A stretch of DNA of 32,595 nucleotides from an uncultured Gammaproteobacteria bacterium (lineage in GTDB: Bacteria; Patescibacteriota; Patescibacteriia; 2-01-FULL-39-33): contig CAYLUK010000005.1 in assembly GCA_964386875.1 (NCBI GenBank), positions 1 through 32,595 on the forward strand. The letters are read 5' to 3'. Made by a program: the position numbers and the translations under genes. This document shows positions 8,074-29,015 of this stretch, piece by piece (within the stretch, counting starts at the first letter, position 1; the number at the start of each line of letters is the position of its first letter). The notes under the pieces were generated by a model. The model made no database searches and was not told where the DNA came from. It was given only the letters and a program-made list of their open reading frames with translations.

Positions 8074-8092
8074 AACTTTTAACTTTCAACTA
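8074..8092 (-). repeat. 19-bp inverted repeat, right arm, beginning with the gyrA stop codon
   Basis: Minus strand TAG-TTGAAAG-TTAAAAG-TT. Confidence 0.85.
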
Positions 8093-11000
8093 TATCAACG
8101 TCACACTCGCCACGGTATCAGCCGGGTCTTTGAATCTCATCACTTTCACGCCTTGGGTGTCGCGACCTAGCACATTAACGCCTTTGACTGCCAAACGGAT
8201 GACCTGTCCTTTATGCGAGATAACAATCAAATCACTGTCATCGCCATACACCACAGTACCACTGACAATCTTACCGGTCTTGGGGGTGATTTTGGCGGTT
8301 TTAATACCCGAGCCACCACGACCTTGTACCTTGTAAGCATTAAGCTTGGTCTGTTTGCCATATCCTTTTTCCATAATCACCATCAGCTTGGCGGTTGAAT
8401 CCACTTTCGGATCAAAAATGCCCATCCCCACAATTTCGTCCTCGCCTTTAATCTTCAGGCCCCGCACGCCGGAAGCGGCTCGGCCCATCGCCCGTACATC
8501 AGCTTCTTTAAAGCGAATCGCTTGTCCGCCACCGGTCACTAAGATGATGTTTTCATTACCTTGCGACGGCACGACCCATTCTAAGTTGTCGCCGTTTTTG
8601 AGCTTGAGCGCGATTAGACCGGATGTCCGTATATTAGTAAAGTCCTCAATCGGTGTTTTTTTAATTGTTCCCTTATTGGTCACCATCACCAAAAATTTAT
8701 CATTTTCAATTTCTGTGGACGGCAAAATTGCCGACACCTTTTCGTTTGGCGCCAGTTGCAAGAAGTTGACCAAAGCTTGCCCTTTGGCGGTTCGAGACGC
8801 TTGAGGCAGGTCATAGCCCTTGAGCTTGAACACGCGTCCGCGGGAAGTGAACATATATATATCCGCGTGGGTGGAAGTCAGGAAGAAATGTTCCACAGTG
8901 TCTTCTTCTTTGGTGGTCAGACCAATAACGCCTTTGCCACCACGGCTTTGCGTTTTGAAGGTGTCCGGTGGCAGACGCTTGATGTAGCCATCTCTGGTGA
9001 CAGTGACGATTATCTCATCATCCGGCACCAAATCTTCCATACTGAAGCTGTCTACGCCGTGGTTGACGATCACAGTCCGCCGAGGCGTGCCGTATTTTTC
9101 ACGTAGTTCTTTAAGCTCGTCTTTGATAATATTTTTTATTCTAGCCGGTGAGTTCAATATCTCACTCAACTCCTTGATCAGCTTCTTTTTCTCTTTCAAT
9201 TCTGTTTCCACCTTAATCTGTTCCAAGTTTGCCAGTTGTTGCAGCCGCATTTCCAGGATTGCCACGGCCTGTAGCTCGCTTAGTTTAAATTTTGTCATCA
9301 GATTGGTCCGAGCTTGTTCTCGGTCTTTGGATTTTTTGATCGTGCTGATGATTTGGTCAATTTTTGACAACGCCAATACCAATCCTTCCAAGATGTGAGC
9401 TCGCTCCTTGGCTTTGTCCAGGTCATATTGAGTCCGCCGAGTGACGACCTCTTGTCGATGTTTCACATATTCTTCCAACACCGATTTCACATTCAATACT
9501 CTGGGTTGGATGCCGTCAACTAACGCCAACATATTAAAATGAAAAGTTGATTGGAGCTGGGTATGCTTAAACAGTTGATTTAAAATTTTCTTGGGGTAAG
9601 TATCCTTTTTCAGCTCAATCACTACTCTGACTCCGTCTTTGTTAGACTCGTCACGCAGATCCCTGATGCCTTCAATTTTTTTGTCCCGCACCAGCTCGGC
9701 GATTTTTTCCAATAGATTAGCTTTGTTGGTTTGATAAGTCACCTCTGATACGATGATTCTAAAAACTCCGTTCTTTGTCTCTTCAATATCAGTCTTAGCT
9801 CTTGTCACAATGCCGCCTTTGCCCGTGGCATAGGCTTGCTTAATATCATTGGTGTTATAAGCAATGCCACCGGTCGGGAAATCCGGACCCTTGATGTATT
9901 TCATTAAATCATCAACAGTACAGTCAGGATTGTCAATCAAATGAATCGTGCCGTCCACTATTTCTTCCAAGTTGTGAGGTGCGATATTGGTCGCCATGCC
10001 CACGGCAATACCTTGAGTGCCATTGATCAGCAGGTTTGGTAATTTGGCTGGCAACACTCGGGGTTCTTGGTGGGCGCCGTCATAGTTGGGCACAAAGTTG
10101 ACGGTGTTTTTTTCAATGTCAAATATCATCTCCTCGGCGATTTTTTGTAACTTGGCTTCGGTATTATGATTGACAAATCCGTTGGCAATGAATGAATGAC
10201 AATCACTGTCCACCTTGACCGAGTAAACTGCTTGTTTATCTTTTGGCCTAATGATAGATTCCACGCGGTCAAAAAAGAATTTATGCTTTATCAGCCAGCT
10301 TATCATCTTCACATCTCGCTTATTCAAAATCCCCGACAGCTTGGCATAATTTTTTTCTAAGTTGTTATACCGGTCAAAGTTATTTCTTTTGATGAAAGAG
10401 TTATTGGGATAATTTTCTCGTAAATAATTATTTAAATAGGGGATGAGGTCGGTCTGGCTCATTCTTGATTTATTCATTTTTTCTATTTTAGACAACACGC
10501 CCTTTTTCCGACTGGAGAAAAATCCAATTTGCTGTTGAAACTGACTGATGTTTTCTACTCCAGAGATGATCAGCTTCAAGCAGTCGTTTCTTTTGTCTCG
10601 GTAGGGAGCGGTAGTGACAATATTAAAATTCAACAAGACAGTTTTCAGTTGCCTGATTAAATTTTTGCTTTTGGAATTATAAGTCAATTCAATTGACTTG
10701 CCCGCGTGGCGTTTGTCCTCTTTGTAGCTGACTGACCCGTCGCCCTCAAAAAGGCCGGTCAAAAAATTCGCTATAGTTTCTTTGGAAGACAGCAAAATTG
10801 AAAATGGAATTTCCTTTTTGTCTGATTTTTCTGCCAGCAGTCCAATGTTCGTCAGAAATTTAACTGCCTGTTGATGATAAATACTTAACTCTCGGCAATT
10901 ACCGCTTATTTCTCGCTCATAAAGCTGGACATTGCCAAATTGTTGTAAGATTATTCTTTTTACCTGATTGTAAAAATCCAAATCTTGATTGCTAAATAGT

Positions 11001-11935
11001 ATTTGCTTCCGGTGATAGCTTCCTTCAGCTACCAGCGTGCCCAAAAGGAACGCTAAATCCCGATTCATCTTTTGCGGTAGCTTTATGTCTTTTTGTTTTT
11101 TGTTGTCGGCGGGATAATATTTTTTCAAATCAATATCTGTCTGTCCAAACAGCGCCGACTTTCTATTGATCAAGACATAATCATTGTCCGTAATGTCGGC
11201 TAAAAGTTTCCAGCGGAAATCAGGTTGGCCAAATTCATTCACACCCCAGACCAATACCGGATGGTTATGTGTTCCCTTGAGCTGATATTTTTGTTTGGTG
11301 GTTATGTCAATAATGCTGTGCTGACCGGAATTAAAAAACTTGCTGGCTTTGATTGCCTTGCCTTGGTAGTTGAGAACTTTCAAATTAATTTTGGCTTCTT
11401 GTTTTTGCGATATTTCTTTGATCGGCATAATTCCCTTGTCAGTCAAAATCAAAGCATCACCGGTGATGCAATATCTCATCGCCGCCGCCCCATCCCCGTC
11501 CATTGAACCCCAGTTTCCCTGACCATTGACCAGCGGATCGCGCAGAGAGAAATCCTGGGCCATTCTAACCATCGTATCATAAATTGCCGAGTCACCATGC
11601 GGATGATATTTGGCCATCACCTCACCGACGACATTGGCTGACTTGCGAAATTTGGCATTGGCTTTGAGACCAATGTCCCACATTGCATAAAGCACCCGAC
11701 GATGAACCGGCTTGAGGCCGTCTCTGACATCAGGCAGGGCGCGGGAGATGATCACACTCATGGCATAATCCAAATAGCTTTGCTGGACTTCGTTGTTGAT
11801 GGTTTGGTTTGTTATGCCTAGTGGCTGTTTGTCTTGAGGATTAATTATTTCCGGCTTTGTTGCTTTGCTTTTGTTTTCCTTTGGTTTTTTTTGAGTTTTG
11901 GATTTTTCAATCGTCGGTTTTGGTTTGGCAGTCAT
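8090..11935 (-). CDS. gyrA: DNA gyrase subunit A precursor with intein (mature ~845 aa)
   Basis: [28 protein letters not shown]|[20 protein letters not shown], GyrA-box QSRGGKG and C-terminal pinwheel repeats. Confidence 0.98.
10163..11470 (-). mobile_element. 436-aa intein with LAGLIDADG homing endonuclease (residues 156-591)
   Basis: Starts CITGDALI right after the catalytic Tyr, block [17 protein letters not shown] blocks LLGTLVAEG and [10 protein letters not shown], ends [10 protein letters not shown]|T. Confidence 0.95.
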
Positions 11936-13608: not shown

Positions 13609-13707
13609 AAAAAATTTGGTAAAATTGTTAAGAAATCTGCTTTGTTGACACAAAGCTATTTGATAGTATTTTACTATATTTTTGAGTTATTTTCAAGTGT
13701 GATTTTT

Positions 13708-13903
13708 GTCTCCCATAGTTTAATAAATAGAATTAGTCTTTTCTAATGTTTAAACGCAGGTCTGCTCCTCTCACCTTTCACCCTTGTCTCCCTGTAGTTC
13801 AGTGGATAGAACAAGCCTCTCCTAAGGGCTAAACGTAGGTTCGATTCCTGCCGGGGAGATAAGAGTGAAAGGTGATGGGGTGTAATTCCTGCCGGTGATA
13901 CCA
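13708..13903 (+). pseudogene. degenerate tRNA-Arg split in the T-loop by a ~123-nt insert
   Basis: 13708-13761 GTCTCCCATAGTTTAATAAATAGAATTAGTCTTTTCTAATGTTTAAACGCAGGT aligns with the tRNA-Arg 5' part; 13885-13903 ATTCCTGCCGGTGATACCA supplies the T-stem, acceptor strand and CCA. Confidence 0.6.
13788..13859 (+). tRNA. tRNA-Arg (anticodon CCT), CCA not encoded
   Basis: CTCCCTG-TA-GTTC-AGTGGATA-GAAC-A-AGCCT-CTCCTAA-GGGCT-AAAC-GTAGG-TTCGATT-CCTGC-CGGGGAG-A. Confidence 0.9.
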
Positions 13904-13905
13904 AA

Positions 13906-13942
13906 CAAAAAACTACTTCAATTTTTTGAAGCAGTTTTTGTT
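13906..13942 (+). terminator. terminator after the tRNA-Arg locus
   Basis: CAAAAAACTACTTCAA-TTTT-TTGAAGCAGTTTTTG. Confidence 0.6.
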
Positions 13943-28885: not shown

Positions 28886-29015
28886 AATCAAAGTTTGTAT
28901 CAAAAGCTGTCGCAGGTAGATCGATGCACCCATCATTTTTTCTCAAAAAAGGTGAGGGGGTGCAAAGCAATAGACTTTAGACTGGAAGGGTTGAATATAA
29001 ATAATTATTTTAATT

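Follow-up and report, generated by a model that had tools for sequence, protein, structure and literature searches.

A tRNA-Arg gene nested in a tRNA-Arg gene

The contig CAYLUK010000005.1 (assembly GCA_964386875.1), from an uncultured bacterium placed by GTDB in the Patescibacteriota, was analysed over its first 32,595 nt, the whole of this stretch being referred to below as the window. At 13708-13903 it carries an intact tRNA-Arg(CCU) gene, flanked by two complementary arms, within the T-loop of a second, decayed tRNA-Arg gene (Table 1). A preliminary description of the same DNA had reported an intact tRNA inside a decayed one, and this observation is confirmed, each of its elements being found in its place. 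The assembly amounts to 0.93 Mb in 90 contigs and is 90% complete. DNA contigs from three sequencing runs in two studies span the whole nest with zero differences inside it and no insert-free joint, and because these contigs bridge the structure the nest is not an assembly artefact.

The inner gene is called as tRNA-Arg(cct) by ARAGORN (13787-13860) and matches the Rfam tRNA model (RF00005) at 13788-13859 with 61.4 bits. In cloverleaf numbering C1 is 13788, G72 is 13858 and the discriminator A73 is 13859, with no CCA following, and the tRNA shares 91% identity with that of the nearest relative. It is the sole tRNA-Arg(CCU) among the 31 tRNA genes detected in the assembly; a separate tRNA-Arg(UCU) gene (anticodon TCT) is present on a different contig.

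The outer copy is recognizable on both sides of the insert. Its 5’ part agrees with the inner tRNA in 41 of the 55 positions compared, four flank bases included, and the local alignment between the two scores 41, compared with a maximum of 26 in ~2000 random windows. The 14 substitutions (six C>T, four G>A, two G>T, one A>T and one T>C) run towards A/T in 13 cases and are mostly the C>T and G>A changes of the preliminary description, which was also right that the GG of the D-loop is now AA and that the anticodon loop has decayed to TTTCTAA. A diversity-generating retroelement was considered as the source of the C>T and G>A changes and rejected, because such changes affect both strands and agree with a decay biased towards A/T. 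On the 3’ side, 13885-13898 repeats 13844-13857 (direct repeat D3) at 13 of 14 positions, ending in ACCA, and the outer 3’ end agrees with the inner 3’ end at 15 of 19 positions. In the RNA fold, GCAGG (13756-60) pairs with CCTGC (13888-92) and closes a T-stem around the whole insert, as had been proposed, so that the inner unit is held in a loop of another tRNA, which has the same anticodon and whose two stem strands pair on either side of it. The outer copy was undetected in the RF00005 search, and when the insert was removed in silico in 450 cut combinations ARAGORN called no tRNA in it. Due to the substitutions towards A/T and the absence of a match or call in these searches, the window’s outer copy is, judged by its sequence, dead and a pseudogene.

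The arms join the inner tRNA to the outer remnants through a long helix. Between 13771-13787 and 13859-13875 there are 15 Watson-Crick pairs, one G.T pair and one mismatch, in agreement with the 16 of 17 paired positions first counted, and the weaker pairing previously traced out to ~13763/13884 is seen in both the fold and the repeat analysis. The repeat search returns the arms as a 22-nt inverted repeat with 91% complementarity, and the helix formed by the leader and trailer of the inner tRNA is ~25 bp long. The RNA fold of 13700-13910 reaches −80.4 kcal/mol (z = −6.98), and none of 200 shuffles folds as well. Between the outer T-stem and the arm helix this fold places an internal loop of 2 x 3 (or 2 x 5) and not of 3-4-3, though no dedicated search for the bulge-helix-bulge (BHB) motif was made. 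The leader/trailer duplex of the inner tRNA, at −37.2 kcal/mol, is the only one of its strength among the 31 tRNA genes of the assembly, the other 30 reaching −16.2 kcal/mol or weaker. The insert (13761-13887) is 127 nt long and the tRNA is its only gene, a complete tRNA between mutually complementary arms.

Table 1. Features of the nested tRNA locus, in coordinates of the window.
Feature	Position	Strand	Details
Promoter-like site	13645..13672	+	TTGACA - 16 nt - TATTTT, 10/12 matches
Outer (resident) tRNA-Arg, 5’ part	13708..13760	+	Acceptor to T-stem 5’ strand GCAGG; decayed
Left junction and left (L) arm	13761..13787	+	TC TGCTCC TCT CACCTTTCAC CCTTGT; pairs with 13859-13884
Inner tRNA-Arg(CCU), intact	13788..13859	+	C1-G72 acceptor pair, discriminator A, CCA not encoded
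Right (R) arm and right junction	13860..13887	+	TAAGAGTGAAAGGTGAT GGGG TGTA ATT
Outer tRNA-Arg, 3’ part	13888..13903	+	T-stem strand CCTGC, decayed acceptor CGGTGAT, A, CCA
Terminator-like hairpin, 14 pairs	13908..13939	.	Called on the − strand; also inverted repeat I4

The cassette in other CPR genomes

The preliminary description had raised the matter of other tRNA-capped copies of the flanking stem, and these exist, the same arms and junction occurring in many other genomes of the candidate phyla radiation (CPR)/Patescibacteria. The shared unit is here termed a cassette, and its arms have conserved cores, which read CCCC(N)CACC in the L arm and GGTG(N)GGGG in the R arm. From 5’ to 3’, the 5’ strand of the outer T-stem is followed by four bases (TTCG/TTCA or CACG/CCCG/CTTG), CCCC(N)CACC and the remainder of the L arm, a short spacer and the inner tRNA, after which the R arm leads through GGTG(N)GGGG, TGAA and ATT to the 3’ strand of the outer T-stem and the 3’ strand of the acceptor. 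The window reads TCTG-CTCC-TCT-CACC ... GGTG-AT-GGGG-TGTA-ATT; its R arm has the family core followed by TGAA-like bases and ATT, while its L arm is a diverged copy of the core YNYR-CCCC(N)CACC. A covariance model (R1), built from 30 other loci with the window left out, matches 13754-13901 over all of its positions 1-136 with 101.7 bits, running across both arms despite the diverged cores, compared with 52.6 and 18.4 bits for the window’s other two tRNAs. The L arm aligns to positions 1-35 of R1, for which the RNAalifold consensus structure left out the arm helix.

The distribution of the cassette was explored with sequence patterns. A degenerate junction pattern (a tRNA T-loop, 20-50 nt, then GGGTRWRRTTC), which the window’s TCTG-CTCC ... 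GGGG-TGTA-ATT fits, occurs in 5 of 34 genomes of the window’s taxonomic family (0 control matches) and in 20 of 401 sampled genomes of its class (2 control matches); on inspection the 20 class genomes comprised 13 true T-loop nests, six tandem tRNAs and one match without a tRNA. A stricter pattern applied to one genome per species (185,579 species) returned 82 loci, 40 of which have a tRNA and complementary arms, whereas 25 are without a tRNA and chance-like. The 40 armed loci include 34 among the 45 records titled as CPR, two unlabelled and four among the 32 records titled otherwise. One locus under another title (L104) repeats the core of L042, whose genome belongs to the window’s own class, and the lineage titles of the records are therefore not all reliable. 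When the R arm after a tRNA was sought in a wider form, 38 of the 401 class genomes gave 51 matches, with 2 control matches. Twenty of the 51 regions were fetched, and in these the cognate tRNA resumes downstream of the R arm from its D-, anticodon or T-loop; by eye, most also have a matching L arm and an outer 5’ part, and one locus (L160) seems to contain three nested layers. An intact copy is present in every nest inspected. The tRNAs involved are mostly tRNA-Arg, with all five anticodons, and also tRNA-Gly, -Pro, -Thr, -Lys, -Met, -Val and -Ile, and the 31 compact loci that were aligned measure 131-150 nt from outer T-stem to outer acceptor remnant. At four loci of the window’s taxonomic family (L010, L016, L005 and L007) the downstream piece alone is kept.

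Comparison within the taxonomic family indicates which of the two copies is older. Upstream of the window’s outer copy, the flank (TATTTTAC ... TTCAAGTGTGATT) is the ortholog of that found beside the single tRNA gene of relatives. In these, TATTTTAC is placed 28-39 nt ahead of the tRNA and TTCAAGTG immediately before it (L003, L010 and L029); in the window both precede the outer and not the inner copy. A divergent metallo-hydrolase gene (MBL, Lactamase_B_3) adjoins tRNA-Arg(CCT) in the family loci fetched, and since this synteny is kept the locus is orthologous across the family. The flank and the synteny together thus identify the outer copy as the old resident gene and the inner copy as the newcomer. 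A T-loop nest is also found at the orthologous locus in two other genera of the same family (L031/L037 and L032/L033). In several nests of recent appearance the bodies of the inner and outer tRNA are identical or nearly so (51/51 positions in L065, 50/50 in L091 and L108, 51/52 in L042) while the acceptor ends differ and remain fully paired, and therefore both copies once functioned as genes, each a different allele. Such allele differences would fit the arrival of the inner copy from a related lineage.

The arms vary together. In the 44 loci with a leader/trailer duplex of −20 kcal/mol or stronger there are 720 pairs, 65 of them G.T (21 pairs and −28.7 kcal/mol for the window), counts that hold only the pairs formed by the folding program and so lean towards pairing. 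Pair counts from a MAFFT alignment, in which two arm sub-types lie one column out of register, were left unused. Variants of the core occur as matched pairs (CCCCGCACC/GGTGCGGGG, CCCCCACACC/GGTGTGGGGG and CCCCGTCAC/GTGACGGGG), and cognate arms pair with a mean of −27.5 kcal/mol, compared with −19.9 kcal/mol for non-cognate arms. The window’s L arm reaches −26.9 kcal/mol with its cognate trailer and a mean of −15.3 kcal/mol with the trailers of other loci. As far as these comparisons reach, the sequences of the arms change while their complementarity stays.

A literature search at the level of titles and abstracts returned no description of nested tRNA genes or of T-loop inserts in CPR bacteria. 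Rfam has no family for the arms, either in the window (gathering level) or in 13 related loci (E up to 1), and in the latter set returned weak tRNA matches on some of the outer halves only. The family, which is recurrent and apparently undescribed, has a somewhat decayed member in the window.

Origin and expression of the nest

The locus is probably a replacement-tRNA cassette with hairpin arms that entered at the DNA level and whose inner tRNA-Arg(CCU) is the working product; we infer the DNA-level insertion, the order of the processing steps and mobility. A small cassette, two complementary arms around a complete tRNA of the resident’s anticodon, would have entered the resident tRNA-Arg(CCU) gene at its T-loop, after which the split resident would lose its function and decay towards A/T as the cassette copy took over. 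Cassettes of the same family sit in cognate tRNA genes across the CPR/Patescibacteria, in the D-loop, anticodon loop or T-loop and sometimes in several layers. The preliminary description had left open a mini-element or an intron that replaced its host tRNA: the orthologous flank, the MBL synteny and the recurrent arms support the mini-element, while the 450 excisions and the missing splicing enzymes (below) speak against the intron. It had also expected the joined outer sequence to score as a tRNA and relatives to keep the flanking stem; the joined copy scores nothing in the window, whereas relatives do keep the stem.

Expression would run through the resident’s signals. A single transcript would probably extend from the resident promoter-like site (13645-13672), which overlaps TATTTTAC as judged against the flanks of relatives (L002, L003, L007, L010 and L029), to the hairpin at 13908-13939, whose T run on the + strand lies partly inside the 3’ arm. 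A second promoter-like site (13706-13733; TTGTCT - 16 nt - TAGAAT, 9/12 matches) lies within the A/T-decayed outer 5’ copy and, on its sequence, could drive the inner tRNA too. In the transcript the arms would fold into a stalk of ~25 bp that carries the tRNA at its end, and RNase P, perhaps after a cut of the stalk by RNase III, followed by 3’ trimming and CCA addition, would free the mature tRNA and leave the outer halves as by-products. The helix has the roughly two turns expected of an RNase III stalk and the genome encodes RNase III, though cleavage is only predicted. The assembly also contains an RNase P RNA (163 bits) and two CCA-type nucleotidyltransferases, and about half of its 31 tRNA genes are without an encoded CCA, so that a CCA-less tRNA is ordinary here. 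The concern raised previously, that a paired leader and trailer with no CCA would be difficult to mature, is eased by the presence of these enzymes, though how RNase P and 3’ nucleases act where an acceptor stem extends into a long helix is a question that the locus raises. The RNase P RNA (type A; contig C2, 19001-19458) probably carries insertions, since it spans 458 nt compared with the 367 positions of the model.

Several observations weigh against this account. A strong leader/trailer helix is found at only 3 of 22 orthologous loci of the taxonomic family and ~10 are without a remnant, which would need repeated gain or frequent loss. The window’s inner and outer copies agree in acceptor type and in four bases of their flank (TTGT), and an in-place duplication fits this as well as an incoming cassette does. 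No transposase, recombinase or phage remnant was found at the locus, where the neighbours are the metallo-hydrolase, GyrA and other housekeeping genes; the Y1 (HUH) transposase family (PF01797) has no match in the 90%-complete assembly; and a pattern for a circular junction (R arm, then L arm) matched 3 of 151 genomes and 3 in the reversed control. Taken together, these negatives leave the distribution of the cassettes as the argument for mobility. Finally, the sense strand of the arms is more stable than the antisense strand in 41 of 44 loci, and this bias, with the kept complementarity of diverged arms, could reflect selection on the helix at the RNA level; the bias is weak evidence of such a constraint because a single conserved G.T pair, at the helix base, accounts for most of it.

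Such selection is the core of the best-surviving alternative, that the leader/trailer helix is now maintained as a processing or regulatory stalk, comparable to the RNase III stems around rRNAs, and that the outer halves are leftovers. The window’s arms, diverged yet complementary (−26.9 kcal/mol as cognates), the strand bias and the presence of RNase III would all be expected of it, as would a locus with a strong helix and no recognizable outer halves (L019), but such a helix is found at only one of the assembly’s 31 tRNA genes, 19 of the 22 orthologous loci are without a strong one, and the bias comes down largely to a single pair. The reading is unlikely, and as it concerns present function it is compatible with a cassette origin. 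The locus just named (L019, in genome G007) and a second one (L020, in G021) hold the orthologous tRNA-Arg(CCT) with a complementary leader and trailer and no recognizable outer halves, the duplex of the former reaching −20.8 kcal/mol (z = −4.9).

It is less likely still that the nest is the relic of a larger integrative element, a prophage with tRNA-dependent lysogeny or a serine-recombinase element, that has lost all but its essential tRNA. The principle has been demonstrated experimentally in mycobacteriophages (PMC10865867), the assembly encodes two large serine recombinases, one of which abuts tRNA-Lys(TTT) beside a broken 5’ copy of tRNA-Lys, and a direct repeat of the 3’ part of the tRNA is present at the nest. 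However, the inserts are uniformly small (the 131-150 nt of the 31 compact loci), their arms are complementary right up to the tRNA, which random deletion would not yield, and the locus is free of phage or recombinase remnants.

An intron acting at the RNA level, with the outer tRNA as the real gene and the insert spliced out of it in the manner of archaeal non-canonical T-loop introns, appears very improbable. The positions of the inserts in T-, anticodon and D-loops are those of archaeal introns, the halves of the outer T-stem pair, the helix has a conserved G.T pair at its base, and ARAGORN calls the joined outer copy as a tRNA with the anticodon of the inner one in 3 of the 16 loci on which this was tried. 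In the window, however, the outer copy is decayed and yielded no call in the 450 excisions, and the joined T-loop would read TC+ATT or CC+AAATT and not the usual TTCRA. EndA (PF01974) and RtcB (PF01139) have no match in the 90%-complete assembly, though control genomes matched, and the intact copy found in every inspected nest would be needless were the outer copy spliced. A local duplication or replication slippage at this one locus, with an inverted repeat arising by chance, would account for the acceptor type and flank bases that the two copies share, but it is scarcely credible given the strength of the fold (z = −6.98) and the 0 to 2 control matches of the patterns, and it is excluded because the arrangement, with the same arm cores and junction, recurs at many tRNAs in many genomes.

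Two further candidates were tried and rejected. For a group I intron, the Rfam matches in the window are confined to tRNA and rRNA, the 13 related loci match no intron family (E up to 1), and both the size of the insert (127 nt) and its placement in the T-loop instead of the anticodon loop fit poorly. A simple tyrosine-integrase att model does not accommodate the four bases between the stems at the left junction as opposed to seven at the right.

Elsewhere in the genome, cassette-like sequences occur at two sites besides the nest. On contig C79 (~1220-1400) a 5’ fragment of tRNA-Leu, whose D-loop contains a GC-rich hairpin, is followed by an L-arm-like ATTCGCCCCACACCTTTT directly upstream of an intact tRNA-Leu(GAG), after which there is no clear R arm. 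In the window, a cargo-less hairpin at 28941-28978 with arms resembling those of the cassette is intergenic and upstream of a trigger-factor gene (29016); it reads CACCCCCTCACC TTTTTT ... AAAAAA ... on the − strand, and its DNA fold has a z of ~ −3.8 to −4.1, with none of 200 shuffles folding as well. A strict pattern for cargo-less hairpins has 0 matches in the assembly and 1 to 4 sites in three of five other genomes. Cargo-less arm hairpins occupy loops of outer tRNA copies and are nested together with a second family of GC-rich hairpins, TCCGCC NNN GGCGGA, often followed by another hairpin. Members of this second family are intergenic on several contigs, lie in the D-loops of broken tRNA copies beside intact tRNA-Arg genes, and were seen in the window’s own genome and at L006, L009, L015, L021 and L028.

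The recombinases of the assembly, two large serine and two tyrosine, are all away from the nest. On contig C63 (1-1900) a large serine recombinase gene (532-aa frame) lies between inverted repeats of ~60 nt, with its end abutting the 3’ end of tRNA-Lys(TTT), and the broken tRNA-Lys 5’ copy, which has a long D-loop insert, is on the upstream side of that tRNA. The single GIY-YIG match is a 385-aa frame on another contig, also away from the nest. In the window itself, the GyrA gene (8090-11935, − strand) is split by an intein that includes a LAGLIDADG endonuclease domain (Pfam matches Intein_splicing and LAGLIDADG_3).

Implications and relation to known systems

A wider proposal can be made tentatively, that the loci represent an undescribed kind of mobile element, self-spreading replacement-tRNA cassettes of ~100-170 nt with hairpin arms that land in a loop of the tRNA gene they are able to replace. 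If so, the tRNA-processing enzymes of the host would express the cargo, a cassette could not be lost once the split host copy had decayed, repeated rounds would build nested layers, acceptor-stem alleles would record transfer between related CPR lineages, and the tRNA genes of CPR bacteria would turn over through cassette replacement. Mobility would further point to a recombination activity that recognizes the loops of tRNA genes. The cassette might also be turned into a tool for DNA insertion at the tRNA genes of genetically intractable organisms. The architecture shows how an essential single-copy gene may be invaded without being lost, leaving a layered record of tRNA gene replacements. It also matters for annotation: tRNA finders detect the inner copy only and leave the outer halves and arms unlabelled, and in other genomes the outer halves could be mistaken for split or intron-bearing tRNAs.

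Extended helices that take the place of a loop in a structured RNA are known from the archaeal non-canonical (BHB) tRNA introns and from the intervening sequences of bacterial rRNAs, which are removed by RNase III. The cassette is similar in this respect, and its positions match those of the archaeal introns, but the insert holds a working gene, the interrupted copy in the window is decayed, and EndA and RtcB were not found in the assembly. Islands integrated at tRNA genes rebuild the tRNA from a host 5’ part and an element 3’ part and carry an integrase and many genes. The window, by contrast, nests a complete tRNA, displaces both halves of the host gene and has no integrase between its junctions. 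The two share their sublocations in the T-loop and anticodon loop and a displaced copy of the 3’ part of the tRNA downstream, the integrase-mediated crossover of such islands lying in one or the other of these loops (an example is PMC1762012).

In form, the cassette is closest to the small palindromic insertion repeats of bacteria, such as the Rickettsia palindromic elements, the REP/REPIN sequences with their RAYT transposases and the Correia elements. Like these it is short, non-coding, hairpin-forming and present in many genomes, and its cargo-less copies nest in each other. To our knowledge, no palindromic repeat of these kinds carries a working tRNA or targets tRNA loops. Among further differences, the assembly of the window has no match to a Y1/RAYT transposase, no target-site duplication was seen, and only a few copies were found in this genome.

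In its working, the closest analogue is the tRNA-dependent lysogeny of actinobacteriophages, in which the inserted phage breaks an essential host tRNA gene that is not rebuilt and supplies its own (Guerrero-Bustamante and Hatfull 2024, PMC10865867). In the window, likewise, the host tRNA is broken and not rebuilt and the cognate tRNA comes from the insert. The phages differ in bringing a whole genome, a tyrosine integrase and attP/attB sites, as opposed to a 127-nt insert with hairpin arms whose only gene is a tRNA, and it is a distinction of the nest that the replacement tRNA lies within a loop of the very gene whose place it takes. Neither tRNA-dependent lysogeny nor the palindromic repeats bring together, as the cassette appears to do, a miniature insert with hairpin arms and a replacement tRNA that lies within a loop of its target.

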